A DNA stretch of 64,000 bases from Centroscyllium fabricii (GCA_051313645.2 JBNRSN020000007.1:140740001-140804000); one strand, 5' to 3'. Shown: positions 1,491 through 62,710, counted from the first letter of the stretch. A program made the numbers and translations. The notes: generated from the sequence alone by a model not told the origin.

Positions 1491-2404
1491 TCGCGTTTGG
1501 CCGGTTGCCGCTGCATCGGGGCGGGGGGAAGGGGCGCTTGCCGTCGCTGAATAGTACTGCAAATGCAGCTTACCTGGTGATAGTTGCTCTCACAGGCTGC
1601 ATTGTACCTTTTAGATGCTGTGGCTGGAGTGGCTCTGCAGGCTTTGGCGAAGTGTCCCTTCTTGGAGCATTTTTCGCAGGTCGCCGTCTTGGCTGGGCAT
1701 TTTGCTCTGGGATGCAATCCTTGGCCACAGAAATAGCAGTGTTTGAGCTTAGTGTCCGTGGTGGCCGTCGCGGCCATCGTGGGGCTCTCAATACGTGACG
1801 CCTGTTGTGGTGTGGCCCATATGTTGTAGACTTGATGGCTGGTACCACCGTACGTCTGCGATTTATTCCGAGCCCCCTCCACCGATTTGGCTAACGTGGT
1901 TGCCTCCTCAAGGGTCAGATTGTCCTTTTCCAGTAGTCTCTGGCGGGCTACTGCACATCTTAGTCCTGAGACATAGGCGTCCCGGAGGAGGATGTTTTCT
2001 TCCTGTGCCTTGGTCAATCCACCCGTGCAGCCACAGGCCCGTATCATGCCCCGGAGCGCTTGCTCAAACTGGTCGTTTGACTCACCGGGTAGTTGAGATC
2101 GGGTCGCTAGTAGGTGGCGGGCGTAGACAGAGTGGACCGGGCGCTCATAGTACCGTTTGAGGGTCGTCACCATTTCCTCGTAGGTTGTAAGGTCCTCGAC
2201 AAGGGTGAAAACCCTGGCGGAGACCCTGGATAGCAGGAGTTGGAGTTTGTCCTCGTCCGTGGTAGCCTTGGCTGCTGCCGTATAGGCCTTTAGTAATCCA
2301 AACCAGAGCTTGAAGGTAGCTGGTGCCGCGTCATCCTGGGGGCTAATGTCCAGCTCCCTAGGTTTTAACTTGCTGCTCTCCATTTTAAAATTATCAATTA
2401 AAAT

Positions 2405-2660
2405 TGTAGCGTAGTCGCTAACTCAATTAAAAGGCGACTCGTAAGTACCGAAATACAAGGCTTTTAATTGATAAAGAATGGAGCTAGTCTCCTTACAAGT
2501 TCACATACAAGAATGGAGGAGCTGGGTCTGGCCACACCTTATATCACCTTACACCTGGGGGAGGAGTTGGGGGTGTGGCTGACCTGGCTCCCAGCAGTAC
2601 AATGGCACTTATACAATGGTAGCCATATAAGGCAATGGTAACCATATAAGGGTTACCACA
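2405..2660 (-). repeat. 5' LTR of copy A (256 bp)
   Basis: TG..CA termini, TATA-like TATAAGG near 2540, ATTAAA signal; same layout as the other LTRs of this lineage. Confidence 0.88.
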
Positions 2661-4326
2661 GACGCCATCTTGGAAAAGTTTTTGCAGTGTGCTCAACCAT
2701 CATGAACAGAGCACTCGAAGTGTTGAAGGGACTATTCATTGCTCCATTTGACGCCAGCGAGGAGAACTGGGACACTTATACAGAGATTTGCTTTCAGATA
2801 AATGGGGTGACGGCAGACCAAAAAGCAGTAACCCTTTTGAATTGTATGGGTCCACAACCTTTCGGACTTTTGAGAGACCTGATTACACCAGAGAAGCCAA
2901 CGGATAAATCATTCGACCAGATTGTAAAAACGCTAAATGACCATTTCAGTTCAGCATTGCCTGTAATCGCAGAAAGATACCGGTTTTATCGACACAACCA
3001 ATGTAGGGGGGAGTCGATAGCAGTGTACTTGGCTGAACTACGCCGATTAGCGAGGAATTACCAATTCCGAGATGTTTTTACGGATACCCTGAGAGACAAG
3101 TTAGTCTGTGGCCTGAGTAATAAAGCCACCCAGAGACAGTTGTTAACGAAGCGACAGCTGACCATGCAGCAAGCGTTTGACATAACTTCTGCTAGAGAGG
3201 CTGCTACACAGCATGAACCAAGCCATGATGCATCAAGTGCTACCGATGTGGCAGATCAAACCACGCTCATACTATCTGTTGGTTCCGAGATAAGACGTGC
3301 CAGCGATGTGACAAGTTAGGCCATATGGCAAGAGTTTGTAGAGCAACCAAGAGTAACAGCGGGGGTAGCCCACAGTTGAATGCAAGAAAGTACCAGGGAC
3401 TCACTATAGACTGGGGCTCACTGAACAACCCAGGTTCCCCAGCAGAGGACGGTGAAGTAGACAGATCAAACCTGCAAACTCGCAAACAAGATGAGGAGAG
3501 AGTCGCAAAGCTAGAAGGGGCTTTGAGTGCGTGTGTGGACAAGGTAGACCGACAGAGGTTGGACATGCAAAGCCTATCTGATGGATTGCGCTCAGACATA
3601 CCATTTGTAGAATGGAGGTCAGAGATTACCACTCAAGAAGTCGACTTTAGAAACCACCCTAAGCTATGGACAGACAAAGCTAAAACTGATGGTGCGGAGT
3701 TCAAACAACAACTGCAGGATATGCAAAACCAGTTGGGTAAATTGTACCAGAATCTGCCTTCCTTGGAGAAGTTAACACCGCCAGAGGACTACGAGAGTGC
3801 CCTAGATGTCGTAAATGATGTCGAGAGAGAGAGATGGAATTATCGTAAAAACAAAACTAAGCCAGAAGATGTGGGTTGAGCTGTTGTGAATAATGTCACG
3901 GGCTGCCATTGTAAAAAAACTGTTTACCTCACTTTAGTATAATGTTAAGAAGAAGAACGAAAAGAAAATGTTGGTATAGATAAACCGCTTGTTATGTAAT
4001 TAGTACTATCTAGCTGTTGTTGTGATGATGTACATTCTCTGTAAGAAAAGGGGCGACGTGTTATCTAAAAGGGGAGGGATGTAGTGTATGTAATAAGGCG
4101 TATGATGTATGTGATGGAGCGTATGATGGACAGCCTGTGGGCCTAAAACAGAGCGGCACTATTTAGTGCATGGCGGAAGAATACGGTAACACCTCTTTAG
4201 GCCACCTAGTATAAATAGCGCTGTACTGCAAGTTGTATTCAGTTTCCACCTGGGCGTTGGCCGAGTAAAGACCTTTCGTTTGTTGTTGATCTGTGTCCGA
4301 GTAGATATTGTGCTAACAACACAACA
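2661..4326 (+). mobile_element. Non-autonomous Mag-like Gypsy element: gag (2687-3340), unrelated coiled-coil-like segment, PPT and 3' LTR
   Basis: Gag motifs ERYRFY..Q..GESIAVYLAELRRLA, LRDKLVCGL; frameshifted zinc knuckle CQRCDKLGHMARVC. PPT AAAAGGGGAGGGA 4067-4079. LTR 4080-4326 TGTAGTG..CACAACA with TATAAATA and AGTAAA. No pol. Confidence 0.75.
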
Positions 4327-5382
4327 GGCAGGGGAAGGGTGAGAGGGAGGAGGGGGAAGGGAGGAGGGAGAGGGAGGAGGAGGTGAGAGCAGGGAGCAGG
4401 GGGGAGAAAGAGGGGCGAGCAATGGAGCAGTGGGGAGGGAGGGGAGAGGGAGAGGGAGAGGCAGGGGGAGGGTTAGAGAGGGAGGAGGAGGGAGAGAGAG
4501 GAGGGGGAGAGTGATGGAGCAGATGGGGAGAGGGAGGAGGGGGGAGAGAGAGGGAGGAGGGGGAGAGTGATGGAGCAGGTGGGGAGAGAGAGGTGGGGAG
4601 AGAGAGGGAGGAGAGGGGAGCGAGGAGGGGGAGCGAGGGAGAGGAAGGGGAGAGGGAGAGGAGGGGGAGAGAGAGGGAGGAGGGGGAGAGAGGAGGGGAG
4701 AGAGGGAGAGAGAGAAGGAAGAGGGGTTGGATAGAAGGAGGAGGGGGAGAGGGAGTAGGGGGAGAGAGGCAGGAGGGGGGATTGAGGGAGGAGGGGGAAA
4801 GAGAGAAGGGAGGAAGGGTTGGAGAGAGAGGAGGAGGGGAGAGAGCGAGGAAGGAGGAGAGGGAGGGGAAAGGGAGGAGGGGGAGAGAGGGAGGAGGGGA
4901 GAGAGAGAGGGGGAGGGTGGAGAGAGCGAGGGGTGTGAGAGAGGGAGGAGGGTGAGATAGAGGAGGGGGAGAGTGAAGGAGGAGGGGAGGGGGTAGCAAG
5001 AGGGAGGTGGGGGAAGAGAGAGGGAGGAGGGGGAGAGGGATGGAGGAGGGGGAAAGAGAGAGGGGGCGAGAGAGAAGGTGGGGAAAGAGGGAGGGGGAAG
5101 GAGGAGGGGGGAGAGAGGGAGAGGAGGGGGTGGAGAGAGAGAAGGAAGAGGGGGTGGAGAGAAGGAGGAGGGGGGAGAGCGAGGCAGGGGGAGAGGGAGG
5201 AGGGGGGAGAGAGGAGGGGGAGAGAGGGAGGGGGAGAGAGAGGGAGGAGGGGGAGAGAGAGCGAGGAGGGGGAGAGGGAGGAGGGAGAGGGAGGGGGAGA
5301 GAGGGAAGGAGAGAAGGAGGAGGGGGAGAGAGAGCGAGAAGGGGGAAAGAGAGAAGCGGGGAGGGAGAGAAGGAGGAGGGGG
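4327..5382. repeat. GA-rich polypurine low-complexity tract
   Basis: Almost only G/A on the + strand; runs into the N gap. Confidence 0.97.
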
Positions 5383-5578: not shown

Positions 5579-7327
5579 CGTATCGTCAATAATCTTAATA
5601 AAGCTAAAGACAAGTGGTGACCTTAACTAGAGGCTTTTATTGACTTACAACGGAGCTATACTCCGAACGAACAACAGGTACAGAATGAACGGGGTCCGGT
5701 CAGTCCCCACCTATAAAGGCCTCACCTGAGGGAGGAGTTAGAGGTGTGGCTGACCTGGCCCCACGACAGTGTCGCAACACATCATGCACCCGACTGCTAT
5801 ACATACTGATAATATTGGCAACAATATTACGGTGGTAATTACAGTATATATACGGTTACCTCATTCACCCCTTCTTTAAAAATTAAGTCCGGCGGGGTGA
5901 ATGGACAGAGCAGTTCACTATCAGTTTATCCGGCGGTCGCGTCTGTCTGGAGGACCGCCGGGGCTCTGGCAGAAGTTCTGCGTGATCCGTTCCCTGCGGC
6001 ATCGGCGGCGTTGGGTCCGGTGGTGGTGACGGCGGCGCTGGTGCCGAAACTTTAGGTGCTGGTGGTGGTTGGTCCGAGCCATCCGAATGTTGGTCCTCAG
6101 CTGGCCGCAGCGGGGGCTCTGGATAACCTGGTGATGGCGGCCAATGTAGGTGCTGGGGGTGGCCGAAATATAGTGGCTGGGCGGGCTGCTGCCCGGCCAG
6201 GGGTTCTGCTACGGTGCTCCCGGCGGGTGCTAGGTCTCTGATGGAGACGGTGTCCTCGCGCCTGTCCGGGAACTGCACGTAGGCGTACTGCGGGTTGGCG
6301 TGCAGGAGCTGCACCTTGTCTACCAGGGGGTCGGTCTTGTGGCCGCGGACGTGTTTCCTAAGGAAGACCGGCCCCGGCGTCGTGAGCCACGGTGGAAGAG
6401 CTGTCCCCGAAGTCGACTTCCTGGGGAAGGAAAACATTAAATCATGAGGGGTGGCATTGGTGGCCGTACACAGCAGAGAGCATATCGAGTGCAGCGCGTC
6501 GGGGAGAACTGCCTGCCAATGGGATACTGGAAGGCCTCTGGACTTCAGAGCCAGGGTGACCGCCTTCCAGATGATCCCATTCTCCCTTTCTACCTGGCCG
6601 TTCCCCCGGGGGTTGTAACTGGTCGTTCTGCTCGAGGCAACCCCTTTCTGGAGCAGAAACTGGCGCAGTTCATCGCTCATGAACGATGACCCCCGGTCGC
6701 TATGAATGTAGCTGGGGAGACCGAAAATGGCGAACAGCGTGGTGAAGTGTTTGATCACCGTTGCGCTCGTCATATCTGGGCAGGGGAAGGCGAAGGGGAA
6801 GCGGGAGAACTCGTCTACGACCGTGAGGAAGTACGAGTTGCGGTCGGTGGTGGGGAGGGGGCCTTAGAAGTCCACGCTTAGACGTTCAAAGGGGCGGGTG
6901 GCCTTAATGAGATGCGCCGTGTCTGGCCTGAAAAATTGAGGTTTGCACTCGGCGCAAACAGGGCACTCTCGGGTCATAGCCTTGATCTCCGTGATGGAGT
7001 AGGGAAGGCTACGGGATCTAACGAAGTGGGCAAGTCTGGTGACACCCGGGTGGCAGAGGCGGTCGTGGAGTTCCTTCAGCCGGTCTAGCTGGGCACTGGC
7101 GCACGTTCCCCTGGACAGTGCGTCCGGGGGTTCATTGAGTTTGCCTGGTCGGTAAAGAATGTCATACTCGTAAGTCGAGAGCTCGATCCGCCACCGCAGG
7201 ATCTTATCATTCTTGATTATACCCTTTTGTTTATTATTAAACATAAACGCGACCGACCGTTGGTCGGTGAGCAGGGTAAAACGCTTACCGGCCAGGTAAT
7301 GACGCCAGTAGCGCACGGGTTACCACA
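5579..7327 (-). mobile_element. Gypsy copy C, internally deleted: 3' LTR (5579-5863), PPT, integrase, RNase H end, fused to the outer ~10 nt of a 5' LTR
   Basis: Integrase HSDRGSSF/GNGQVER (5883-6773) and RH/HHCC (6864-7316). Junction GCGCACGG|GTTACCACA is consistent with an ACGG microhomology deletion to the LTR start. Confidence 0.85.
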
Positions 7328-8495
7328 CTGGGTATGTCCCGGTAATCGTATAACAGGTTTATGTACAACATGGTATTAGGTACGATTACATAGATACAGG
7401 CGGGGTAAGTATATACAATAAGAGGAGTTAGAGGTGTGGCTGACCTGACCCCGCGACAGTGTCGTAATACAAAAACTATGTACAGTGCACCCAGCCGCTA
7501 TACATGCTGGTTTATAGTGTGCTTAACTATTACAGTGGTAATAACGGTTACCACATTCACCCCTTCTTTGAAAATTAAGTCCGGCAGGGTGAATGGACAG
7601 AGCAGTTCATAATAAGTCTCTCCGGCGGTCGTGTCTGCCTTGAGGACCGCCGGGTTTCCGTTAGCGGTGCTGGTGCCTGCAGTGTCGGCGGCGCTGGTGC
7701 CGGTAGTGTCGGCGGCGCTGGTGCTGGTAGTGTCGGTGCTGGTGCCGGCAGTGGCGGTGAGGCCGGGTCCACCGGCTGCTGCTGTGCCTGTGGTGCAGCG
7801 TCCGGTTCTTGGTCCTCGGTTGGTAGTGGCGGGGGCTCCGGTGTGTGTGTGTGCATAGGCCAAAATCCGTTGGGTTGTGGTTGGTGTGTAGGCCAGTGGT
7901 CGGTAGGTAGTGGCTGGTCAGGCTGAGGCTCGACCAGGGGCTCTGCTGTGGTGCTCCCGGCGGGCGCTAGGTCCCTGATGGAAACTGTGTCCTCGCGCCC
8001 GTCCGGGAACTGCACGTACGCGTACTGCGGGTTGGCGTGCAGCAGCTGCACCTTCTCCACCAGGGGGTCGGTCTTATGGCCGCGGACATGCTTTCTAAGT
8101 AAGACCGGCCCCGGCATCGTGAGCCATGGTGGGAGTGCTGTCCCCGAAGTCGACTTCCTGGGGAAGGAAAAGAGCAATTCGTGAGGTGTGGCGTTGGTTG
8201 CCGTATACAGCAGAGAGCGGATGGAGTGCAGCGCGTCTGGGAGGACTGCCTGCCAACGGGACACTGGAAGGCCTCTGGACTTCAGGGCCAGGCTGACTGC
8301 CTTCCAGATGATCCCGTTCTCCCTTTCTACCTGGCCGTTCCCCCGGGGGTTGTAACTGGTTGTTCTGCTTGAGGCAACCCCTTTCTGAAGCAGAAACTGA
8401 CGCAGTTCGTCGCTCATGAACGACGACCCCCGGTCGCTATGGATGTAGCTGGGGAGACCGAAAATGGCGAACAGCGTGGTGAAGTGTTTGATCAC

Positions 8496-8899
8496 GGTGG
8501 CACGGTGGCATAGTGGTTAGCACTGTTGCCTTACAGCACTAGAGACCCGGGTTCAAATCCAGCCTCGGGTACTATCTGTGTGGAGTTTGCACATTCTCCC
8601 CGTGTCTGCGTGGGTTTCCTCCGGGTGCTCCGGTTTCCTCCCACAGTCCAAAGATGTGCGGGTTCGGTTGATTGGCCATGATAAATTGAACCTCAGTGTT
8701 AGGGGGATTAAATATGTGGGGGTTACGGGGATAGGGTGGGATATGTGTTGGTGCAGGCTCGATAGGGATATGGGGAGAAGGCAGGGACAGGGTGCTGGGT
8801 TTGGATGATCAGCCATGATCTCATTGAATGGCGGAGCAGGCTCGAAGGGCCGAATGGCCTACTCCTGCTCCTATCTTCTATGTTTCTATGTTTCTATGT
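8496..8899 (+). mobile_element. HE1-type tRNA-derived SINE inserted in the integrase
   Basis: A box TGGCATAGTGG, B box GGTTCAAATCC, CR1/HER1-type tail ending (TATGTTTC)n; TSD ATCAC at 8491-8495 and 8900-8904. Confidence 0.92.
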
Positions 8900-10641
8900 A
8901 TCACCGCTGCGCTCGTCATATCTGGGCAGGGGAAGGTGAAGGGGAAGCGGGAGAACTCGTCTACGACCGTGAGGAAGTACGAGTTGCGGTCGGTGGAAGG
9001 GAGGGGGCCTTTGAAGTCCATGCTTAAACGTTCAAAGGGGCGGGTGGCCTTAATGAGGTGTGCCGTGTCTGGCCTGTAAAATTGGGGTTTGCACTCGGCG
9101 CAAACAGGGCACTCTCGGGTCATAGCCTTGATCTCCATGATGGGGTAGGGGAGGCTACGTGATTTAACGAAATGGGCAAGTCTGGTGATACCCGGGTGGC
9201 AGAGGCGATCGTGGAGTTCCTTCAGCCGGTCTAGCTGGGCACTGGCGCACGTTCCCCTGGACAGTGCGTCCGGGGGTTCATTGTGTTTGCCTGGTCGGTA
9301 AAGAATGTCATACTCGTAAGTCGAGAGCTCGATCCGCCACCGCAGGATCTTATCATTCTTGATTATACCCTTTTGTTTATTATTAAACATAAACGCGACC
9401 GACCGTTGGTCGGTGAGCAGGGTAAAACGCTTACCGGCCAGGTAATGACGCCAGTAGCGCACGGGTTACCACACTGGGTATGTCCCGGTAATCGTATAAC
9501 AGGTTTATGTACAACATGGTATTAGGTACGATTACATAGATACAGGCGGGGTAAGTATATACAATAAGACGAGTTAGAGGTGTGGCTGACCTGACCCCGC
9601 GACAGTGTCGTAATACAAAAACTATGTACAGTGCACCCAGCCGCTATACATGCTGGTTTATAGTGTGCTTAACTATTACAGTGGTAATAACGGTTACCAC
9701 ATTCACCCCTTCTTTGAAAATTAAGTCCGGCGGGGTGAATGGACAGAGCAGTTCATAATAAGTCTCTCCGGCGGTCGTGTCTGCCTTGAGGACCGCCGGG
9801 TTTCCGTCAGCGGCGCTGGTGCCTGCAGTGTCGGCGGCGCTGGTGCCGGTAGTGTCGGCGGCGCTGGTGCTGGTAGTGTCGGTGCTGGTGCCGGCAGTGG
9901 CGGTGGGGCCGGGTCCACCGGCTGCTGCTGTGCCTGTGGTGCAGCGTCCGGTTCTTGGTCCTCGGTTGGTAGTGGCGGGGGCTCCGGTGTGTGTGTGTGC
10001 ATAGGCCAAAATCCGTTGGGTTGTGGTTGGTGTGTAGGCCAGTGGTCGGTAGGTAGTGGCTGGTCAGGCTGAGGCTCGACCAGGGGCTCTGCTGTGGTGC
10101 TCCCGGCGGGCGCTAGGTCCCTGATGGAAACTGTGTCCTCGCGCCCGTCCGGGAACTGCACGTACGCGTACTGTGGGTTGGCGTGCAGCAGCTGCACCTT
10201 CTCCACCAGGGGGTCGGTCTTATGGCCGCGGACATGCTTTCTAAGTAAGACCGGCCCCGGCATCGTGAGCCATGGTGGGAGTGCTGTCCCCGAAGTCGAC
10301 TTCCTGGGGAAGGAAAAGAGCAATTCGTGAGGTGTGGCGTTGGTTGCCGTATACAGCAGAGAGCGGATGGAGTGCAGCACGTCTGGGAGGACTGCCTGCC
10401 AACGGGACACTGGAAGGCCTCTGGACTTCAGGGCCAGGCTGACTGCCTTCCAGATGATCCCGTTCTCCCTTTCTACCTGGCCGTTCCCCCGGGGGTTGTA
10501 ACTGGTTGTTCTGCTTGAGGCAACCCCTTTCTGAAGCAGAAACTGACGCAGTTCGTCGCTCATGAACGACGACCCCCGGTCGCTATGGATGTAGCTGGGG
10601 AGACCGAAAATGGCGAACAGCGTGGTGAAGTGTTTGATCAC

Positions 10642-11053
10642 GGTGGCACGGTGGCACGGTGGCATAGTGGTTAGCACTGTTGCCTTACAGCACTAGAGAC
10701 CCGGGTTCAAATCCAGCCTCGGGTACTATCTGTGTGGAGTTTGCACATTCTCCCCGTGTCTGCGTGGGTTTCCTCTGGGTGCTCCGGTTTCCTCCCACAG
10801 TCCAAAGATGTGCGGGTTAGGTTGATTGGCCATGATAAATTGAACCTTAGTGTTAGGGGGATTAAATATGTGGGGGTTACGGGGATAGGGTGGGATATGT
10901 GTTGGTGCAGGCTCGATAGGGATATGGGGAGAAGGCAGGGACAGGGTGCTGGGTTTGGATGATCAGCCATGATCTCATTGAATGGCGGAGCAGGCTCGAA
11001 GGGCCGAATGGCCTACTCCTGCTCCTATCTTCTATGTTTCTATGTTTCTATGT
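10642..11053 (+). mobile_element. Duplicate of the HE1-type SINE
   Basis: Same insertion site and TSD ATCAC, with one extra CGGTGGCA unit at the head. Confidence 0.92.
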
Positions 11054-12554
11054 ATCACCGTTGCGCTCGTCATATCTGGGCAGGGGAAGGTGAAGGGGAA
11101 GTGGGAGAACTCGTCTACGACCGTGAGGAAGTACGAGTTGCGGTCGGTGGAAGGGAGGGGGCCTTTGAAGTCCACGCTTAAACGTTCAAAGGGGCGGGTG
11201 GCCTTAATGAGGTGTGCCGTGTCTGGCCTGTAAAATTGGGGTTTGCACTCGGCGCAAACAGGGCACTATCGGGTCATAGCCTTGATCTCCGTGATGGGGT
11301 AGGGGAGGCTACGTGATTTAACGAAATGGGCAAGTCTGGTGATACCCGGGTGGCAGAGGCGATCGTGGAGTTCCTTCAGCCGGTCTAGCTGGGCACTGGC
11401 GCACGTTCCCCTGGACAGTGCGTCCGGGGGTTCATTGAGTTTGCCTGGTCGGTAAAGAATGTCGTACTCGTAAGTCGAGAGCTCGATCCGCCACCGCAGG
11501 ATCTTGTCATTCTTGATTTTACCCTTTTGTTTATTATTAAACATAAACGCGACTGACCGTTGGTCGGTGAGCAGGGTAAAACGCTTACCGGCCAGGTAAT
11601 GACGCCAGTAGCGCACGGCCTCCACGATGGCCTGGGCCTCCTTTTCCACTGCAGAGTGGCGAGTTTCGGGTCCCTGTAGGGTGCGGGAGAAAAACGCTGC
11701 GGGCCTGCCTGCCTGATTCAGGGTGGCAGCAAGGGCAAAGTCACTCTCCACCTGGAAAGGGATGGACTCATCAACGGCGTGCATGGTCACCTTGATAATA
11801 TCTTCCTTGATCTGGGCGAACGGCGTATGGGCTTCTACCGAGAGGGGGAAGACGTCAGCCTTGAGGAGCGGTCTGGCCTTATCCGCGAACTGGGGAACCC
11901 ATTGCGCGTAATAAGAGAAAAATCCCAGACATCTCTTCAGGGCTTTGGGGTTGTGAGGTAGGGGCAGTTGCTGTAAGGGACGCATACGCTGTGTGTCGGG
12001 GCCGAGGACCCCGTTTTCCATCACGTATCCGAGGATGGCGAGCCGATCTGTACTAAAGACGCACTTATCTTTATTGTACGTGAGATTGAGCCGTTTCGCC
12101 GTGTGGAGAAATTTGGCCAGGTTGGCATCGTGGTCCTGCTGATCATGGCCGCAGATGGTCACGTTGTCCAGGTAGGGGAAAGTGGCCTGCAACCCGTTCT
12201 GGTCAACCATGCGGTCCATCTCCCTCTGGAATACCGACACTCCGTTGGTCACGCCGAAGGGGACCTGGAGGAAGTGGTAGAGCCGACCATTCGCCTCGAA
12301 CGCAGTGTACGGGCGGTCAGTTTTCCGGATCGGGAGTTGGTGATACGCCGACTTAAGGTCGATTGTGGAGAACACCTTGTACTGGGCGATCTGGTTAACC
12401 ATTTCCGAGATGCGGGGAAGGGGGTAGGCGTCGAGCCCGGTGTAGCGGTTAATGGTCTGGCTGTAGTCGATCACAATCCGCAGTTTCTCGCCAGTCTTAA
12501 CCACTACGACCTGGGCCCGCCAGGGGCTGGTGCTGGCTTCAATTATCCCCTCCT

Positions 12555-14428: not shown

Positions 14429-16512
14429 CCTGCAGCATACGCCCGACCTCCGACCTGATAAATGTCCGATCCCCTGCACTGTAACGCCGACTCTTAGTAG
14501 CAATGGGTTTGCAGTTGGGGTCGAGGTTGGCGAACAGCGATGGGGGGTCGACTTTCAAGGTGGAAAGGTCGCAAGTCGGGCTCAGCTTTAGAAAGGGATT
14601 GTCCCGGCTACTGACGGTGAGGGGGGCCAGGGTCCCGCCGAACTCTATTGTCACGCTCTTCAGGTGGCACTGGAAGTCCAGTCCCAGTAAGACTGGGGCG
14701 CACAACTGCTGGAGTATGTACAGTTTAAAATGACGGTACACGCAGTCCCTGACTGTGAGCATGACGGAGCAGTAGCCGGTGTGGACGCGGTGGCGGTGCC
14801 CGGAGTTCGCACGCAGCGGGCCGCGGTGGCTGGGTTGGCGGCGCCCGTGATTCGCATGCAGCGGGCCGCGTTGGGCGAGATGCCGGCGTTGGGGGGTTGC
14901 CCATGGCCGGCCGCGGCCGAGTTTGGCGTGGCGGTGCCCGTGCTGTGTGCGCGGCCGGCCTCTGCCGTATCAGGGTGGGAGACGGGGGCGCTTGTACTCT
15001 ACCCCCGGACCGTCGCTGGGTCGCGCTGCAACTGCAGCTTACCTGAGGCCAAGGGCCGGCGTCGGAGCTCTCGCAGGCCGCGCTGTTGTGTCTGGAGCTG
15101 CTGGGTGCTGGGGCCGATCTGCAGGCCCTGGCGTAATGTCCCTTTTTCCTACATTTCTCGCAGGTCGCGGTCCTCGCGGGGCATTTCGCTCGCTGGTGTA
15201 GTCCCTGGCCGCAGAAATAACATCTTTAATCCGCCGGCGTCTTCGCAGCTGCCGCTGCCGTTGTGGAGGTCTTGACCTGTCGTGGGGCCGCCCAGGAGTC
15301 GAAGGTGGCTTGTGGGCCTTGGCCACTATACGCCTCTAATTGGCATCGTGCGCCATCCACCGCGTTGGAGAGGGAGATCGCCTCTTCCAGCGATAGTGTC
15401 TCTTTCTCCAGCAGCCGCTGGCGGGCCTGGGTGGACCTGATCTCCATCACGTAGGCGTCCCGGACGAGGAGATTCGCCTCCTCCTGTGCCGTCCGTGCCT
15501 TGCAGTCACAGGGCCGGACGAGGGCTTGGAGCGCCAACAGGTACTGTTCGTTGGACTCACCAATTCGTTGTTGTCTGGTCGCCAGCACGTGTCTGACGTA
15601 GACCGAGTGGACCGGGCGCACATAGCATGCCTTCAGTTTCTCCATGGCTTCTGTGTACGTTTTAGCGTCGCGGATGAAGGAGTATACCCGGCTGGAGATC
15701 CTAGATGTGAGAACGTGAAGTTTGTTCCCGTCGGTTGTCGCCTTGGCGGCCTCCATGTAGGCCTCGACGAGACTGAACCAATGTTCAAATGCGTTGGCGG
15801 CGGCTGGGTCCTGTGGACTGATGTCCAGCTTTTCGGGTTTCACAGCGCCGCTCTCCATTTTAGTTTTAAAGCGAATAAAATTGACGTATCGTCAATGAAT
15901 CAAAGATGAGTAGTTACCTTAACTATAGACTTTTATTCGCTTTACAAAGGAGCTACGCTCCGGTCGAACATCGAGTACAGAATGAATGGGGGCAGGTCAG
16001 ACCCCACCTATAAGGCACTCACCTGAGGGGAGGAGTTAGAGGTGTGGCTGACCTGACCCCGCGACAGTGTCGTAATACAAAAACTATGTACAGTGCACCC
16101 AGCCGCTATACATGCTGGTTTATAGTGTGCTTAACTATTACAGTGGTAATAACGGTTACCACATAAGTTCAATTTGATCACCGGCCTTCTGGTCCTCTGA
16201 GACCGGCGTAGTTGAACTGGTGTTTGTCGGATCTCCCCCGTTCTGTCCCTTGTGTTCATCTCTGGACCACACAGGTCCCTTGACTCGTGGTCCCCCCTGT
16301 TGCATTCATCCATCTGTGGCGATTCTCTCATCTTCTCTTCCTCTCTCTTTCGTGAGGGCAGAATGCCTCAGTCGTTTTAAATAGGTGCCTCCTGTTTCTG
16401 CGGTAAACCTTGCCCGTCTCTGTCATGACATTGTATGACCTGTGAGCAACCTGTTGCAGGACTGTGGCTTTCTTAGACCATGACTCTGGCCCTTGAATAC
16501 AGACCATGTCCT

Positions 16513-19500
16513 TGTGGTAAACCACTATGTATATATTTGTATCATATCCATGGCCTGTAGTATTGTGTATATAGTTCTCTGTGTACTGCTTGTCTGGGCA
16601 TGCCCGTGCTGACTCCGCCTGTGACTCCTCCTCCCAGGACAGGTATAAAGGTAACTGTCTCCCTCCCCCCGATCATTCCGGGAGCAGTCGACTAGCTAGG
16701 GCATGCCCAAGCTTTAGTGAATAAAAGCCTTTATTCACCATGTAACTTCTCGTTTCTGAGGTTATTGATAAGGTATCAATTTTATTCGCTAAATTTAATC
16801 ATGGAGACCATGCTCAAACCAGCGACGTTAGAACTGGATCTCCAAACAACAGGCGCCTCTAACACGTTTACGCACTGGTTCAACTGCTTCGAGGGGTACC
16901 TCGAAGCCACCGTGGCGATCGTCCAGACGGAAAGGGACAAGCTGCGCCTTCTCAACGCCCGGGTGGGCCCCCAGGTGTACTCAATAATCGCGGACGCTAC
17001 GTCCTACACTGAGGCGGTCCGAATCCTGAAGGCCGAGTATACCCGGGCACCGAACATCGTCCATGCCAAACACCTTCTGGCCACCAGAAAGCAACAACCC
17101 GGGGAATCGAGCGTGGAGTTCCTACGAGCGCTGAGAGTCCTCTGCTGGGCCTGCAACTGTAAGGCACAGTCAGCCTTGGTGCACTCTGAAAGCCTCATCA
17201 GGCACGCTTATGTCACTGGCCTCAGGTCCGATTATATTCGCCAGAGACTGTTGGAGCAGAATGGCATGGACCTGCAGGCGACAATCGAACTTGGGAATGC
17301 GCTGGACTTGGCGTCCCATAATATGGCCGCTTACTCGGCCGACAACGCGGGCACATCGCGGATGCCGCCATCTTGGAAACAGCCGGCCGCACCGCGACCA
17401 GCGGAAGAGATGACTGCGGCTACAACCTCAAAAGGGCCGAAGTGCTACTTCTGCGGCCAGGCCCAGCACCCCAGGCGAAATTGCCCAGCAAGAGACGTGG
17501 CCTGCTCCAAGTGCGGGAAGAAGGGCCACTATGCGAAGGTATGCAGAGCGGCGGCGCTATCGTCCTCCAAACCGGGCAGCGCCGCGTGTGGCCCGTGGGG
17601 GCAGCCATCTTGGACACAGCCATCTTCCACACAGCCCGCCGCGTGGGAGCAGACACCATCTTGGACATGGCCACCTTCCACACAACCCACCGCGTGGCGG
17701 CAGCCATCTTGGGACCAGGCCCCGGACATCTCAACCGACTCGACCGACCCGATACTGGCCTCCATCACACTCGACCAGAACAGGAGCCAGCCACTGAGCA
17801 AATCAATGATGACGGAACAGGTGAACGGGCGGAGTACGGATTGCCTTTTCGACAGCGGGAGTATGGCGAGCTTCATACACCCTGATACGGTAAAGCGCTT
17901 CTCCCTAATGGTCATGCCGGCTAGCCAAAACATTTCGATGGCGTCAAAGTCCGAATCTGCGGACGTCTGCGGTCGTTGCGTAGTAACCCTGACAGTGTGG
18001 GGCGCGCACTTCCAGAATTTTAAATTATTCGTGCTGCCGCAGCTCTGCGCTCCCTTACTGCTGGGCCTCGACTTCCAATGTCACCTCCAGAGCGTGACGA
18101 TGGCGTATGGTGGGCCCCTTCCCCCGATCACGGTCAGCAACCAGCACTCCCCGCAGTGCCCACAGCGCACTACCTGCGGTCTCTCGACCCTTAAGGTCGC
18201 CCCTCCCTCACTCTTCGTCAACCTCACCCCGGACTGCAAGCCCGTCGCCACCAAGAGTAGGCGCTACAGTACCGGGGACAGAGACCTCATCAAGTCTGAG
18301 GTGAAACGGCTCCTGAAGGAGGGGGTCATCGAGGCCAGTAATAGCCCCTGGAGGGCACAGGTAGTAGTTGTAAAGACCGGAGCCAAGCACCAGATGTTCG
18401 TTGACTACAGTCAGACCATTAACTGGTTTACGCAGCTAGATGCGTATCCCCTCCCCCGCATAGCGGATATGGTGAACCAGATCGCCCAGTATCGGGTCTG
18501 CTTGACCATCGATCTGAAGTCTGCGTACCACCAGCTCCCCATCCGCTCAGAGGACCGCCACTATGCTGCTTTCGAGGCAGACGGCCGCCTCTATCACTTT
18601 CTCAGGGTTCCGTTTGGTGTCACCAACGGGGTCTCGGTCTTCCAAAGGGAGATGGACCGAATGGTTGATCAGTACGGACTGCGGGCCACCTTTCCGTATC
18701 TCAATAATGTTCCCATCTGCGGCCACGATCAGCAGGACCATGACACCAACCTCCAGAAATTTCTCCACACCGCCAAAAATTTAAACCTGACTTATAACAC
18801 GGAAAAATGTGTGTTCAGGACAACCCGCCTCGCCATCCTTGGCAGTGTTGTGGAGAATGGGGTCATCGGTCCCGACCCGGACCGCATGCGCCCCCTCCTG
18901 GAGCTCCCTTTCCCCCACTCCCTCAAGGCCCTGAAAAGGTGCCTGGGGTTCTTTTCATATTATGCCCAGTGGGTCCCCAACTACGCGGACAAGGCCCGCC
19001 CAGTACTCAAATCAACCTCCTTTCCCCTGTCGGCAGAGGCCCGCACGGACTTCTGCGGCATAAAACAGGATATTGCAAAGGCCGCGATGCACGCTGTGGA
19101 CGAGTCCATCCCGTTCCAGGTAGAGAGCGATGCGTCCGACTTTGCCCTGGCCGCCACCCTTAACCAGGCAGGCAGACCCGTGGCCTTCTTCTCGCGCACC
19201 CTCCAGGACCCCGAAACCCGACACTCTTCCGTTGAGAAGGAGGCCCAGGCCATTGTTGAAGCAGTGCGACACTGGAAGCACTACCTGGCCGGCAAACGAT
19301 TTACCCTGCTGACTGACCAACGCTCAGTCGCGTTCATGTTCAACAACAAAGAGCGGGGTAAAATCATGAATGACAAGATATTGAGGTGGAGAATTGAGCT
19401 CTCTGCTTTCAATTATGAATATTCAATGAACCCCCAGACGCCCTGTCCCGTGGTACATGTGCCAGCGCACAAGTGGACCGTCTCCAGACCCTGCACAACG

Positions 19501-21015
19501 ACCTCTGCCACCCGGGGGTCACCAGGTTCGTTCACTTTATCAAGTCCCGCAACCTCCCCTACTCCATCGAAGAGGTCAGAACCATGACCAAGAACTGCCG
19601 GTTCTGTGCGGAGTGCAAGCCGCACTTCTTTCGGCCGGATCGGGCACATCTGATTAAGGCCACCCACCCCTTTGAGCGACTCAGCGTCGACTTTAAAGGG
19701 CCCCTCCCCTCCTCTAACCGCAACGCGTACTTTTTAAATGTCATTGACGAGTACTCGTGTTTCCCCTTCGCCATCCCCTGCCCGGACATGACCTCCTCCA
19801 CGGTCATCAAGGCACTGCACAGCATCTTCTCCCTGTTCGGCTACCCCAGCTACATCCACAGCGACCGGGGGGCCTCTTTTATGAGTGACGAGCTGCGTCA
19901 GTTTCTGCTAGCCAAGGGCATCGCCACGAGCAGGACTACCAGCTATAACCCCCGGGGGAACGGACAGGTAGAGAGGGAGAACGCCACCGTCTGGAAGGCC
20001 ATCCTATTAGCCCTACGGTCTAAAGGCCTCCCAGTCTCCCGCTGGCAGGACGTCCTCCCCGAAGCGCTCCACTCCATTCGGTCACTTTTATGTACGGCCA
20101 CTAACGCCACTCCTCACGAGTGACTTTTGCCTTCCCTAGGAAGTCAGCTTCAGGGACCTCGCTGTCGTCATGGCTATCGTCCCCGGGACCCGCCCTGCTC
20201 CAGAAGCACGTGAGGGGCCATAAGTCGGACCACCTGGTCGAACGGGTCCACCTCCTGCACGCCAACCCCCAGTACGCCTACGTGGCGTACCCTGACGGGA
20301 GGGAGGATATGGTGTCCATCAAGGACCTGGCACCCTCGGTGCCCCCGAGACCAGTACGACCCATCAGCCCGCACCCCCCCCTGCATACCGCCACCTTTGG
20401 GGCACCAGCACCACGGTATGTCATACCCCTCGAGGCGCCGGCACCAGCACCATGGTACGCCCACCCAGCACCTGCAGGCAGCACGGTATGTCCCCCTAAC
20501 CTACGCACCCGCCAGCCGGATGACGAATGGGAGAGCGCGCCAGGGATTGTTACCGCAAGGGGCCCTGCATCGGATCAAACGCTCTCGCCGACCCCGCCGT
20601 CGCCGACTCCACCGCCAACCATGCGCCCACCGACTCCACCGCCAGCGGTGCGCCGCTTGACAAGGCAGACCAGGCCGCCCGACAGACTTAACATTTAACG
20701 ACTGCATAGCATTCGCCCCGCCAGACTTTATTTTTTAACAAGGGGTGAATGTGGTAAACCACTATGTATATATTTGTATCATATCAATGGCCTGTAGTAT
20801 TGTGTATATAGTTCTCTGTGTACTGCTTGTCTGGGCATGCCCGTGCTGACTCCGCCTGTGACTCCTGCTCCCAGGACAGGTATAAAGGTAACTGTCTCCC
20901 TCCCCCCGATCATTCCGGGAGCAGTTGACTAGCTGGGGCATGCCCAAGCTTTAGCGAATAAAAGCCTTTATTCACCACGTAACTTCTCGTTTCTGAGGTT
21001 ATTGATAAGGTATCA
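16513..21015 (+). mobile_element. Full-length Gypsy copy E (4.5 kb) with two 266-bp LTRs and a 5-bp TSD
   Basis: LTRs 16513-16778 and 20750-21015 (about 6 differences by eye); TSD GTCCT at 16508-16512 and 21016-21020; PPT AAGGGGTGAA. Confidence 0.97.
16801..20698 (+). pseudogene. gag-pol polyprotein of copy E (2 CCHC knuckles, protease FDSGS, RT, RH, integrase), disrupted
   Basis: ORF pieces 16717-19587, 19473-20123, 20120-20698; frameshifts near 19420 and 20120; RT motif reads YLNN versus YLDN in relatives. Confidence 0.92.
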
Positions 21016-26346: not shown

Positions 26347-27437
26347 TGTGGTAACCGTGTAAATACCATTGTAAATAGTTGATGTTCTCACCTGGTATTG
26401 CATGATAACCCAGGTCAGCCACACCCCTAACTCCTCCCCTCAGGTCGGAGCATATAGGTGAGGGCTGCCATGCCCCCACTCACTCTCGCCTTGAACTCAT
26501 CAGGAGACCAGCTCCATTGTTAGTTAATAAAAGCCTATAGTTTGGGTAACTACTCGTCTTTGCGTTTTAATTGACGATACGTCAATTTTATTAACTAAAT
26601 TTTAAAACATGGAGAGTAACGCAGTGAAACCGGATCGCCTCGACATAAATCCTCAGGCACCCGATGCTGCTAATGACTTCGAACACTGGTTTGGCCTGGT
26701 CGAGGCCTACATGAAGGCCGTAAAGGCTACGAGGGATGAGGACAAACTCCAGGTACTCTCGTCACAGATCAGCGGCCGGGTGTATTCTTTTATCCGCGGC
26801 CTCAGGACTTACGAGGAAGCGGTTAAGAAATTAAAGGACTGCTACATGCGCCCGGCCCACTCGGTCTATGCCAGGCATGTTCTGGCAACCAGAAGACAAC
26901 GACTCGGTGAGTCAACCGAACAGTTCCTACTAGCGCTTCAAGCCCTCGCATGGGCCTGCGACTGCCAGGCAAGGACGGCGGAGGAAGAGGCGAAACTCCT
27001 AATCCGAGATGCCTATGTGGCCGGACTCAGGTCCAGCCAGGCCCGCCAGCGGCTGCTGGAGCAGGACACACTGTTGCTCGAATCCGCAATAACTCTTTCT
27101 AATGCGGTGGACGGAGCGCTTCAAAAGCTGGAGGTTTACGGAGACCATTGCTCACACGGTTCCCCTGACCCCTGGGCGACACAGCGACAGGCCGAGACCC
27201 CCACGATGGCAGCGGCGACTGGGAAGACACCGGCGGGGCACAGATGCTACTTCTGTGGCCAAGGAAAGCACCCGCGGGCGCAGTGCCCCGCGAGGAATGC
27301 GACCTGCGCGCGGTGCGCGAAGAAGGGGCACTACGCGAAGGTGTGCAAGTCCAGCGCAGCCTCCACCTCCAGACCCAACAGCGCGGCTTGTGAGAACAGC
27401 GATGCCACTCCATGGCTCCAGGTACGGTGTTGCAGCG
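26347..27437 (+). mobile_element. Gypsy copy F: 5' LTR (26347-26584) and gag, truncated by fusion to inverted copy G
   Basis: TGTGGTAACC start; gag ATG 26609 with CYFCGQGKH/CARCAKKGH knuckles. Confidence 0.9.
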
Positions 27438-44710: not shown

Positions 44711-44711
44711 A

Positions 44712-52116: not shown

Positions 52117-52169
52117 TGTTATATTGCAGTGACCTCCACTGTAAGTAATGAACTTTTAAATATTAACAG

Positions 52170-57190: not shown

Positions 57191-57807
57191 GTATGTCTGC
57201 TCCTGAAAAATTGAAGTCTAGCATGAGAAAAGTTTGTGACAATTCCGTGATAAAAGCACTGTATAAAAATTAATGCAAATCTTTACAATTTTAAAAGTTT
57301 TTTTGCATATTTAGTTTATATAAAGAAAGGCTTGCATTTGTATAGCATCTTTCATGACCACAGGACACCACAAAACACTTTACAGCCAATTAGTTAATTT
57401 TGAAGCGTAGTCACTGTTGTAATGTAGCAAGCACACCAGCCAATTTGCGCACAACAAACTCCCACAAACAGCAATGTGATAAAGACCAGTGTGGTAATCC
57501 TGTATTTACCACTATGTATATATTGTTGTACCTGTAAAGGACCCTACTGTGTTAATACATTTACCTGTACATATCTGTGGATACCTGGCTGCAGGAACTG
57601 CCCCGCCTCTAACTCCTCCCCTCAGGTCGGAGTACATAGGTGGCCGCTCACCATTCCCCGGTCATTTCCTGTCCTGAGCTCAGCCAAAGACCAGCTCTGT
57701 ACCAGCTCAGTTTATAGTTAATAAAAGCCTTTAGTTGAGGTAACTATTCGTCTTTGAGTATTATTGACGATACGTCAATTTTATTAACTATTTTTGAAAA
57801 TGGATAG

Positions 57808-60800
57808 TGACGTATCGTCAATAGTCTAATAAAACCAAAGACACGTAGTTACCTCAACTAAAGGCTTTTATTAGCTTACAAAGGAGCTATGCTCCGATCG
57901 AACATCAGGTACAGAATGGATGGGGCAGGTCAGACCCCACCTATAAGGCACTCACCTGAGGGGAGGAGTTAGAGGTGTGGCTGACCTGACCCCGCGACAG
58001 TGTCGCAATACAAAGCAGTGTATCATGCACCCGGCCGCTATACATACAGAATAATATTGGGCAACAATATTAAGGTGGTAAAAGAGTACATATAACGGTT
58101 ACCACATTCACCCCTTCTTTGAAAATTAAGTCCGGCGGGGTGAATGGACAGAGCAGTTCATGATGAGTTTCTCCGGCGGTCGCGTCTGTCTGGAGGACCG
58201 CCGGGTCTCTGTCAGCGGCTCTGGTGCCTGCAGTGTCGGCGGCGCTGGTGTCGGTAGTGTCGGCGGCACTGGTGCCGGTAGTGGCGGCGGCGCTGGTGCC
58301 GATACTGTAGGCGCTGGGGCCGAGCCCTGCGGTTGCTGCTGTGCCTGCGGCTCGTCGTCCGGTTCCTGGTCCTCAGCTGGCAATGACGGGGGCTCTGATG
58401 CGTATGATTGTAACGGCCAGCCTCCGGTGGGTTGTGGGTGGTGTATCGGCCAGTGGTCGAAATGTAGTGGCTGGACGGACTGGGGCCCGACCAGGGGCTC
58501 TGCTGTGGTGCTCCCGGCGGGCGCTAGGTCCCTGATGGAGACGGTGTCCTCACGCCCGTCCGGGAACTGCACGTACGCGTACTGCGGGTTGGCGTGCAGC
58601 AGCTGCACCTTGTCTACCAGGGGGTCGGTATTATGGCCGCGAACATGCTTCCTAAGCAAGACCGGCCCCGGCATCGTGAGCCATGGTGGAAGGGCTGTCC
58701 CCGAAGTCGACTTCCTGGGGAAGGAAAAGAGCAAATCGTGAGGTGTGGCGTTGGTAGCCATACACAACAGAGAGCGGATCGAGTGCAGCGCATCAGGGAG
58801 GACTGCCTGCCAACGGGACACTGGAAGGCCTCTGGACTTCAGGGCCAGGCTGACCGCCTTCTAGATGATCCCGTTCTCCCTTTCTACCTGGCCGTTCCCC
58901 CGGGGGTTGTAACTGGTCGTTCTGCTTGAGGCAACCCCTTTCTGAAGCAGAAACTGACGCAGTTCGTCGCTCATGAACGACGACCCCCGGTCGCTATGGA
59001 TGTAGCTGGGGAGACCGAAAATGGCGAACAGCGTGGTGAAGTGTTTGATCACCATTGCGCTCGTCATATCTGGGCAGGGGAAGGCAAAGGGGAAGCGGGA
59101 GAACTCATCTACGACCGTGAGGAAGTACGAGTTGCGGTCGGTGGAGGGGAGGGGGCCTTTGAAGTCCACACTTAGACGTTCAAAGGGGCGGGTGGCCTTA
59201 ATGAGGTGCGCCGTGTCTGGCCTGAAAAATTGGGGTTTGCACTCGGCGCAAACAGGGCACTCTCGGGTCATAGCCTTGATCTCCGTGATGGAGTAGGGGA
59301 GGCTACGGGACTTAACGAAGTGGGCGAGTCTGGTGATACCCGGGTGGCAGAGGCGATCGTGGAGTTCCTTCAGCCGGTCTAGCTGGGCACTGGCGCACGT
59401 TCCCCTGGACAGTGCGTCCGGGGGTTCATTGAGTTTGCCTGGTCGGTAAAGAATGTCGTACTCGTAAGTCGAGAGCTCGATCCGCCACCGCAGGATCTTA
59501 TCATTCTTGATTTTACCGTTTTGTTTATTATTAAACATAAACGCGACCGACCGTTGATCGGTGAGCAGGGTAAAACGCTTACCGGCCAGGTAATGACGCC
59601 AGTAGCGCACGGCCTCCACGATGGCCTGGGCCTCCTTTTCCACTGCCGAGTGGCGAATTTCGGGTCCCTGTAGGGTCCGGGAGAAAAACGCTACGGGCCT
59701 GCCTGCCTGATTCAGGGTGGTGGCAAGGGCAAAGTCTGAAGCGTCACTCTCCACCTGGAAAGGGATGGATTCATCAACGGCGTGCATGGTCACCTTGATA
59801 ATGTCTTCCTTGATCCGGGCGAATGCCGTTTGGGCTTCTACCGAGAGGGGGAAGACGGCAGCCTTGAGGAGTGGTCTGGCCTTATCTGCGAACTGTGGGA
59901 CCCATTGTGCATAATAGGAGAAAAATCCCAGACATCTCTTCAGGGCTTTGGGGTTGTGAGGAAGGGGCAGTTCCTGTAAGGGGCGCATACGCTGTGGGTC
60001 GGGGCCGAGGACCCCGTTTTCCACCACGTATCCGAGGATGGCGATCCGATCTGTACTAAAGATGCACTTATCTTTATTGTACGTGAGATCATGCCGTTTC
60101 GCCGTGTGGAGAAATTTGGCCAGGTTGGCATCGTGGTCCTGCTGGTCATGGCCGCAGATGGTCACGTTGTCCAGGTAGGGGAAAGTGGCCTGCAACCCGT
60201 TCTGGTCAACCATGCAGTCCATCTCCCTCTGGAATACCGACACTCCGTTGGTAACGCCGAAGGGGACCCGGAGGAAGTGGTAGAGCCGACCGTTCGCCTC
60301 GAAGGCGGTGTACGGGCGGTCGGCTTTCCGGATCGGGAGTTGGTGATACGCCGATTTAAGGTCGATTGTGGAGAACACCTTGTACTGGGCGATCTGGTTA
60401 ACCATTTCCGAGATACGGGGGAGGGGGGAGGCGTCGAGCCCGGTGTAGCGGTTAATGGTCTGGCTGTAATCGATCACCATCCGCTGTTTCTCGCCAGTCT
60501 GAACCACTACGACCTGGGCCCGCCAGGGGCTGGTGCTGGCTTCAATTATCCCCACCCTCAGCATACGCCCGACCTCCGACCTGATAAATGCCCGATCCCC
60601 TGCACTGTAACGTCGACTCTTAGTAGCAATGGGCTTGCAGTTGGGGTCGAGGTTGGCGAACAGCGAGGGGGGGTCGACTTTCAGGGTGGAGAGGCCGCAA
60701 GTCGGGCTCCACTTTAGGAAGGGATTGTCCCGGCTACTGACGGTGAGGGGGGCCAGGGTCCCGCCGAACTCCATTGTCACGCTCTTAAGGTGGCACTGGA

Positions 60801-62710
60801 AATCCAGTCCCAGTAAGACTGTGGCGCACAACTGCTTGAGTATGTACAATTTGAACTTACGGTACACGCAGTCCCTAACTGTGAGTGTGACGGAGCAGTA
60901 GCCGGTGACGTCCGCTGTGTGGGACTGTGAAGCAAGGGAGACTTGGTAGCGCGTGGGCAGGATCTGCAGTCCGTAGCGCTGCACTGTATCGGGGTGGATG
61001 AAGCTCTCTGTGCTTCCGGTGTCGAACAGGCAGTTAGTGGCATGGCCGTTGACTTTAATCCCCATCATGGAATTTGATAGGGTGTGCGGCCTAGCCTGGT
61101 CGACCGTGGCTGAGTCTGAAGTGTATGTGTTTGTGTGGGAGCCCTCCGCTGGCCGGGGCCGTGCACATGATTCGCACATGGTCTACCGCTGTGGACAAGA
61201 TGGCGGCGCCGGGGAGTCGCACATGGCTGGCCGCTGAAGACAAGATGGCGGCGCCGGGGGTCGCACATGGCCGGCCGTTGCGGACAAGATGGCGGCGCCC
61301 GTGATTCGCACGCGGCGGGCCGCTGTGGACGCGGTGGCGGTGCCTGTGGTTCGCACGCAGCGGGCCGCGGTGGCTGGGTTGGCGGTGCCCGTGATTCGCA
61401 CGCAGCGGGCCGCGCTGTGCGAGATGCCGGCGTTGGGGGGTTGCACATGGCCGGCCGTGGCCGATTTTGGCTTGCCGTGGGCGCGGCCGGCCTCTGCCGC
61501 CTCAGGGTGGGAGACGGGGGCGCTTGTACCCTACCCCCGGACCGTCGCTGGGTCGCGCTGCAGCTGCAGCTTACCTGAGGTCAAGGGCCGGTGTTGGTGC
61601 TTTCGCAGGCCGCGCTGTTGTACCTGGAGCTGGATGCCGGGGCCAATTTGCAGGCCTTGGCGTAGTGTCCCTTTTTCGAGCACTTCTCGCAGGTCGCGGT
61701 CCTCGCGGGGCATTTCGCTCTTGGGTGTAGCCCCTGGCCGAAGAAATAGCATTTCTTCTCCGCCGGCGTCTTCGCAGCTGCCGCTGCCATTGTGTGGGTC
61801 TCGACCCGTTGTGGGGCCGCCCAGGAGTCGAAGGTAGCGTGTGGGTTTTGGCCGCCGTACGCCTGTAGTCTGCGGTGCGCGCCATCCACAGCGTTGGAGA
61901 GGGAGATCGCCTCGTCCAGTGTTAGTGTGTCTTTCTCCAGCAGCCACTGGCGGGCCTCTGCGGACCTGAGCCCCGTTACATAGGCGTCCCGGACGAGGAG
62001 ATTCGCCTCCTCTTGTGCCATCCATGGTTCGCAGTCACAGGCCCGGACATGGGCTTGGAGCGCCAACAGGAATTGTTCATTGGACTCACCCACTAGCTGT
62101 GGTCTGGTCGCGAGCACATGTCTGGCGTAGACTGAGTGGACCGGGCGCTCGTAGCACTTCTTCAGTTTCTCCACGGCTTCAGTGTACGTCTTAGCGTCGC
62201 GGATGAAGGAGTATACCCGGCTGGAGATCCTTGAAGTGAGAACATGCAGCTTGTTCCTGTCGGTTGTCGCCTTGGCGGCCTCCATGTAGGCCTGAACGAG
62301 ACTGAACCAGTGTTCAAATGTGTTGGCGGCGGCTGGGTCCTGTGGACTAATGTCCAGCTTTTCGGGTTTCACAGCGCCGCTCTCCATTTAAAATTTTTAA
62401 GCTAAAAAATTGACATATCGGCAATAGTCTAATAAAACCAAAGACGCGTAGTTACCTCAACTAAAGGCTTTTATTAGCTTACAAAGGAGCTATGCTCCGA
62501 TCGAACATCAGGTACAGAATGGATGGGGGCAGGTCAGACCCCACCTATAAGGCACTCACCTGAGGGGAGGAGTTAGAGGTGTGGCTGACCTGACCCCGCG
62601 ACAGTGTCGCAATACAAAGCAGTGTATCATGCACCCGGCCACTATACATACAGAATAATATTGGGCAACAATATTAAGGTGGTAAAAGAGTACATATAAC
62701 GGTTACCACA
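57808..62710 (-). mobile_element. Full-length Gypsy copy B (4.9 kb) nested in the start of copy H gag
   Basis: LTRs 62411-62710 and 57808-58106 (about 4 substitutions plus 1 indel); TSD GATAG at 57803-57807 and 62711-62715. Confidence 0.97.
58126..62387 (-). pseudogene. gag-pol polyprotein of copy B, disrupted
   Basis: Gag 61581-62387, PR-RT-RH-IN 58861-61179 (FDTGS, YLDN), IN tail 58126-58821; TGG-to-stop changes at 61581 and 58861; frameshifts in the linker. Confidence 0.92.

Follow-up and report, generated by a model that had tools for sequence, protein, structure and literature searches.

We propose that a Gypsy clade without a chromodomain, abundant in the genome of Centroscyllium fabricii, primes reverse transcription with a piece of its own RNA. 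The best reading of the sequence data is Tf1-like self-priming by a cut 5′ fragment of about 52 nt. More exactly, and with a probability that we put at roughly 0.7, a capped 51-53-nt 5′ fragment, cut after an A-run, would serve as the primer, its 3′ end one base away from the end of the LTR, and copying into the plus strand would keep the PBS matched to it.

The starting material was a stretch of 64,000 nt from C. fabricii (the window), in which six elements (A, B, D, E, F, and H) were examined at their 5′ LTR-internal junctions. They are about 4.5 to 4.9 kb in size and encode Gag-PR-RT-RH-IN. Each LTR starts with TGTGGTAA and ends with CA; in all six, the CA is followed by one spacer A and then by the reverse complement of the 13-14 nt that end in the LTR's A(A/T)TAAAA. 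Pairing over these 13-14 nt is perfect in A, D, F, and H, with one G-U in E and a 1-nt deletion in the PBS of B, and the gag ATG begins 21-24 nt past the spacer A. The LTR ends were set by alignment of 5′ and 3′ LTRs and by the 5-bp target duplications of E (GTCCT) and B (CTATC). All six segment/PBS pairs listed in an earlier note on this DNA were found where it had placed them, and the LTR limits agreed with the LTR-LTR comparison and the target site duplications (TSDs). The features, in window positions, are as follows.

2391-2403, minus strand: self-complementary PBS of element A; LTR end at 2405, spacer A at 2404, gag ATG at 2383
2462-2474, minus strand: R segment of element A, 13 nt ending in ATTAAAA; the self-primer is predicted to have its 3′ end here
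2462-2514, minus strand: predicted 53-nt primer fragment of element A, with the Inr A (2514) at one end and 2462 at the other, supported by where run-ons stop in copies of the A family
2405-2660, minus strand: 5′ LTR of element A, 256 nt; the gag-pol frame from 2383 runs off the window start
15867-15880, minus strand: PBS of element D, 14 nt; gag ATG at 15858
15931-15944, minus strand: R segment of element D; Inr A at 15983, LTR 16163-15882
16513-21015, plus strand: element E, full length; LTRs 16513-16778 and 20750-21015, 5-bp TSD, purine tract and AA before the 3′ LTR
16513-21015, plus strand: coding region of element E, Gag-PR-RT-RH-IN with frameshifts, no chromodomain
16675-16726, plus strand: predicted 52-nt primer fragment of element E; Inr A at 16675, paired segment 16713-16726
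16780-16793, plus strand: PBS of element E; gag ATG at 16801
26482-26532, plus strand: predicted 51-nt primer fragment of element F; paired segment 26520-26532, LTR 26347-26584
26586-26598, plus strand: PBS of element F; gag ATG at 26609
57714-57726, plus strand: R segment of element H; LTR 57490-57777
57779-57791, plus strand: PBS of element H; gag broken just past its ATG by the inserted element B
57808-62710, minus strand: element B, full length, within H, with a 5-bp TSD; 3′ LTR at about 58107-57808
62469-62481, minus strand: R segment of element B; Inr A at 62520
62398-62409, minus strand: PBS of element B, with a 1-nt deletion

In element H, the closest Inr-like motif (57664) lies 63 nt upstream, with a short duplication in between. 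Other features of the window include the YLNN catalytic motif in the element E RT (16696-19587), a pol/3′ LTR unit in tandem partial copies with a period of about 2.15 kb (5849-12552), and an additional gag that has no LTR junction of its own and starts directly at the 5′ end of element B (62717-63561). For CTCCAT in R (2383 and 2480-2490; also in loci L035 and L339), folding predicts two alternative partners, a local one and the start codon of gag, which might act as a translation/priming switch.

How general is the arrangement? A pattern in which only TAAAAGCCT and CA-R-TTTTA were fixed matched 217,969 times in the 7.2-Gb host genome and 24 times in the control. This is about one match per 33 kb, and the clade may be the source of much of this genome. 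From the top 70 loci of the pattern list we took 72 junctions, of which 65 were kept; the 7 dropped did not have ATGGA, but 5 of these show a perfect 13-nt duplex and the other 2 deviate at one or two places. With the 6 window junctions and 6 from neighboring DNA, the host set comes to 77, one of which (L309) is a run-on copy of the kind described below.

Across positions 1-13 of the host set, Watson-Crick pairing is 0.92-1.00, and it falls sharply from 0.97 at position 13 to 0.39 at position 14 (0.31 expected). Fifty-nine of the 77 duplexes are perfect, in 25 haplotypes, and all four pair types occur at position 8. At positions 6-13, which the pattern left free, pairing is 0.93, compared to 0.625 ± 0.021 after permutation (maximum of 0.703 in 5000; 43 distinct pairs), in a test that treats junctions without regard to relatedness; paired changes nevertheless recur inside families. 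Fully compensated changes, including transversions, separate L101 from L110 and L306 from L336, copies that are 99.6% and 97.3% identical, and 14 haplotype contrasts show perfect compensation at ≥90% identity. It is improbable that copies so similar each picked up a matched pair of mutations independently; the PBS has the look of a templated copy of the segment, as would follow directly if the self-primer were copied into the plus strand. Predicted RNA folds give the duplex a pairing probability of >0.5 in 67/77 host and 29/29 distant junctions. G-U pairs fill 8 of 1001 duplex cells versus 11 of 455 in the U5 hairpin, a weak contrast. The same duplex is found in three families (L296, L327, and L350) with a Gag N-terminal extension of 15-20 residues. 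For the Ty3 RT, a spacing of about 13 bp between the active site of the polymerase and that of RNase H is given in the excerpts of PMC5371799; the 13-bp limit of the duplex would match this spacing.

Distant relatives carry the same junction. Alignment-based scans gave 77 metagenome and 20 MAG loci, 38 of which reached the gag start and 29 of which were parsed. The remainder were L169 and L171 (TGG outgroups), L086, L095, L142, and L160 (cut or permuted), L123 (degenerate), and L139 and L148 (no LTR upstream); in L095 and in L087, the duplex was seen on later inspection. In the 28 non-identical distant junctions, pairing is 0.86-1.00 up to position 13, often continuing to 14-19; the parser took the best-matching register, which favors pairing, and the observed 11-13 matches in 13 are far above chance. 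Pairing at positions 6-13 is 0.95 versus 0.58 ± 0.035 permuted (21 distinct pairs). The covariation on which the earlier note was built was thus kept in a larger alignment of 77 host and 28 distant junctions, and the PBS tracks its LTR through perfect haplotypes that number at least 25 in the host set and 14 in the distant one. The distant junctions all share a duplex that closes with TAAA or AAAA, a G-C pair at position 10, and a purine spacer, usually with (G/A)CC next. A(A/T)TAAA lies inside the segment in 17/28; the other 11 keep the duplex without the hexamer. In L082 and L161-L163, AATAAA is found downstream of the segment.

In a quick RT tree of 63 rows, a 40-row clade (SH-aLRT of 100, stem of 0.92) excludes all 5 chromodomain rows, and all 18 duplex-bearing rows fall within one RT clade with support of 100, apart from chromodomain and TGG-PBS elements; L169 and L171, with a TGG-type PBS, branch apart from it. 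The Gypsy lineage of the earlier note is separate as far as the 5 chromodomain rows and the TGG outgroups are concerned, in a tree that omits 5 loci with short matches and holds no named Tf1, sushi, Mag, or CsRN1 reference. The chromodomain (PF00385) was absent from the window frames tested and from 5/5 relatives and present in 2/2 controls. TG..CA LTRs, a PPT, TSDs, and the PR-RT-RH-IN order are those of Ty3/Gypsy elements, and the closest solved RT is that of Ty3. The closest named homologues are from sharks and rays, and named sources of related Pol proteins include cnidarians, flatworms, nematodes, molluscs, arthropods, echinoderms, hagfish, and elasmobranchs; a search of viral contigs found none. 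L158-L177 are animal-type retrotransposons in contigs filed as bacterial MAGs, probably through host contamination. Selgy was rejected as a name for the lineage, since Selgy is a Selaginella clade. In size, the short single-ORF elements here, which occur in many animal phyla, presumably resemble those of the Cigr-1 clade. Excerpts of PMC6238403 report that clade in tunicates and molluscs. The Saci2/lennie elements, compared by description only, differ in having a 4-bp TSD and a tRNA PBS, as given in the excerpts of PMC12471100, whereas we find 5-bp TSDs and no tRNA site.

Where the RNA begins is central to the proposal. Among the 77 host junctions, 73 have a TATA-like box 80-83 nt before the duplex end and 65 have an Inr-like motif 51-53 nt before it; most of the distant relatives have no TATA/Inr at the host spacing. 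If copying of the primer went on past the paired segment, the PBS would continue as the reverse complement of upstream R, and we searched for this class of run-on copy after predicting it. Three junction searches gave 45, 230, and 49 hits (324 in total), with 0 in controls, and we examined 145 of the 324 (45/45, 70/230, and 30/49). The first 105 comprised 56 long and 49 partial run-ons, the latter reduced to 45 when shared junctions were merged; 14 of these 45 end within -1 to +2 of the Inr A. Forty further loci comprised 20 long and 20 partial run-ons, and with one shared junction and one copy without a family reference dropped, 3 of 18 end at the Inr (p = 0.045). Pooled, 17 of 63 partial run-ons end within -1 to +2 of the predicted start, 51-53 nt upstream of the duplex end. 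The stop rate per base is 17/384 (4.4%) at the Inr, compared to 17/2338 (0.7%) before it (p = 6e-7) and 10/6424 (0.16%) after it. Since run-on stops map 51-53 nt upstream, the RNA would begin well before the motif, unlike that of Tf1. Self-priming by a segment internal to R, as the earlier note suggested, is well supported by the covariation, by the seemingly templated compensation, and by Inr and run-on stops in three host family groups, and a start site at the motif itself, which would have made this ordinary Tf1-type priming, is removed for these three groups.

As would be expected of stranded plus-strand strong-stop DNA, the majority of partial run-ons have the first base of the LTR at one end, with no PPT ahead of it, and are joined through microhomology to host DNA, U5, gag, or pol at the other. 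Some of the stops at the Inr also use microhomology to gag or pol. In 76 of the 145, the run-on continues into U3, and some go on into the PPT; the long copies either extend as far as the beginning of the LTR, where a TSD follows (fold-back), or proceed into the PPT. Five fold-back insertions, each an LTR plus an inverted partial LTR (L178, L197, L208, L251, and L270), apparently integrated as such, because 5-bp TSDs flank them. When the two arms of fold-back copies were compared, differences were not enriched in the first 52 nt (2/208 versus 17/652 in TSD copies).

Some LTRs have other signals in this region. The TATA-less LTRs of L152, L167, and L087 carry, 30-43 nt ahead of the duplex end, a tract in sense orientation that resembles a 3′ splice acceptor; splicing or trans-splicing may give their RNA its 5′ end. 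Among the L084 and L098 groups, L143, and L158, we noted antisense splice-donor-like CCTTACC motifs in U3/R and, after an Inr-like site, a GCCGCCATGTT motif that we take to be YY1-like.

We imagine the cycle as follows. Transcription would start at the Inr, about 31 nt past the TATA box and 51-53 nt before the duplex end, as the run-ons suggest. The R segment would then pair with the PBS, a step that is reflected in the covariation and in the predicted fold. An RNase, probably the RNase H of the RT as in Tf1, would cut between the A-run and (G/A)CC, and from the 3′-OH, one base from the LTR end, strong-stop DNA would be extended across the U5 side of the LTR, a distance of 23-65 nt. The plus strand would copy back into the primer, normally for about 13 nt, rewriting the PBS from the segment; occasional copying as far as the cap would give rise to the run-on copies present in the genome. 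In families whose paired segment is the poly(A) hexamer, this helix might, secondarily, hide the hexamer in the 5′ LTR only.

The cut itself is harder to place; its predicted position is taken from where the duplex ends. Truncated upstream arms start within -2 to +1 of the predicted cut in 8 of 43 cases (p = 1e-5), but this pile-up is not proof of the cut site, because arms would also end there if a palindrome were trimmed. Re-entry junctions (35 hits versus 2 in controls) were rejected as proof: 11 of 17 re-enter by microhomology downstream of the predicted cut, and with an unconditioned pattern, re-entry elsewhere was as frequent. Of the two primer sources that the earlier note had offered, the 5′ fragment fits better than a trimmed 3′ end, while the truncated arms and re-entry junctions leave the cleavage site unproven. 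Run-ons could also form when the 13-nt PBS copy anneals to the 5′ end of another RNA; such mis-annealing could map the start site but not the primer.

We consider it unlikely that a second cut, or a start site at the motif in some families, frees the paired segment alone as a short primer of 11-14 nt, which would make the priming ordinary Tf1 type and the run-ons incompletely processed intermediates. An AG 11 nt before the duplex end in 65/77 host and 23/28 distant junctions is in keeping with such a primer, as are the G-C at position 10, invariant in 28/28 distant junctions, and the missing upstream TATA/Inr in most distant LTRs. However, positions 12-13 co-vary as strictly as the remainder, and the host-family RNA end maps to -51 to -53. 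We have more serious doubts about priming by the 3′ copy of the segment, in which the RNA 3′ end, cut or trimmed after the hexamer, would pair with the PBS and circularize the genome. This, too, predicts run-ons into U3 and the PPT, and run-ons via U3 into the PPT and internal region are found in all three family groups. These long run-ons are also explained by fold-back, with its 5-bp TSDs, or by annealing to the 3′ R; 3′-end priming alone does not give the pile-up of stops at the Inr, and the 5′ copy, only 23-65 nt from the PBS, pairs with it in the predicted local fold.

It seems to us very improbable that the helix has no function beyond masking of the 5′ poly(A) signal or control of gag translation, an external RNA serving as the primer. 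Every one of the 77 host segments has A(A/T)TAAA at its end, of which no more than five bases were imposed by the pattern, and in predicted folds the helix often extends toward the gag AUG. Yet masking would not require the helix to stop one base short of the LTR boundary, it has no need of compensation between 99.6%-identical copies, and it would not call for dozens of perfect PBS haplotypes (at least 25 host and 14 distant) that follow the LTR or for duplexes kept without a hexamer (11/28 distant junctions). Least credible of all is a tRNA or tRNA half at the PBS position. TGG occurs within the first 8 nt after the LTR in 0/106 junctions, and when 58 post-LTR 19-mers were compared to 13 distinct host tRNAs, of the Cys, Lys, and Ser isotypes only, the longest complement was 5-7 nt; the claim that there is no tRNA PBS has so far held, within those isotypes.

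Self-priming by the cut 5′ fragment leaves room for poly(A) masking as a plausible second role in host 5′ LTRs, for which it is a candidate only; the hexamer is kept in 77/77 host segments, which makes this role plausible there. It is not the general reason for the duplex, given the hexamer-free distant junctions and those with the hexamer downstream. The description of the segment as a poly(A) signal thus applies throughout the host set and to only 17/28 distant junctions. No retrocopies of family A with a poly(A) tail turned up when they were searched for (0 hits). In HIV-1, which uses a tRNA primer, a local R hairpin hides the 5′ hexamer. The hexamer of the 5′ copy would likewise be paired here, but its partner is the PBS, present only after the 5′ LTR.

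Tf1 is the closest parallel for the priming itself. Its primer reportedly consists of 11 nt at the mRNA's 5′ end. In Tf1/sushi elements, the primer is the extreme 5′ end, whereas the paired 13 nt here would lie about 39 nt inside the RNA, as judged from host-family DNA. The paired segment here, unlike that of Tf1/sushi, often includes the poly(A) hexamer, and the clade differs in having no chromodomain and an RT in a separate clade, in a tree without named Tf1 or sushi. Of the three-helix pretzel of Tf1, the central helix is found here; a 3′ hairpin and a U5-end hairpin are common but variable, and a third helix is not consistent. Excerpts of PMC10085805 and PMC4600332 describe self-priming and no tRNA site in the Tf1/sushi chromoviruses (Tf1, Tf2, Tj1, Tosmo, sushi, and Tcn1); as in these, we find no tRNA site and a PBS just past the 5′ LTR that complements a 5′ LTR segment. 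Tf1 cDNA, according to excerpts of PMC11042837, keeps a primer-copied single-stranded tail that inserts by homology, and the run-on copies here resemble that tail.

Other unusual primer sites are known. The TAR/Houba/Osr-1 Copia elements are predicted self-primers with a PBS complementary to their own LTR, in the excerpts of PMC6317226, and self-priming would therefore have arisen more than once; these are plant Ty1/copia elements, unlike the Gypsy clade here. A pyrimidine-rich or hairpin sequence takes the place of TGG in Skipper of Dictyostelium and in fungal GalEa (excerpts of PMC5006619 and PMC6934838). As described there, Skipper has a chromodomain and no LTR complement, the opposite of the present clade on both counts, and the GalEa hairpin is within the internal domain, again with no LTR complement. 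We found no earlier description of the arrangement reported here in the open literature, including excerpts of PMC3601003 and PMC6238403; Repbase, GyDB, and subscription journals were outside the scope of that search.

One can envision a still broader picture, to which we would give slightly less than even odds: an independent origin of self-priming in an animal-wide Gypsy clade, with a capped primer of about 52 nt cut after the poly(A) hexamer and one helix that primes, rewrites the PBS in each cycle, silences 5′ polyadenylation, and tolerates any RNA 5′ end, while hundreds of genomic fossils record the intermediates. Self-priming as known so far belongs to the Tf1/sushi chromoviruses and, as a proposal, to one Copia lineage, to judge from the sources excerpted above; the present work would add a Gypsy clade outside the chromoviruses. 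With an internal primer, the element would no longer depend on an exact start site, and it would escape silencing by host tRNA fragments that target the PBS. Annotation tools that demand a tRNA PBS will miss these elements. The run-on copies show that a genome sequence by itself can reveal start sites and replication intermediates, with predictions exact to the base.
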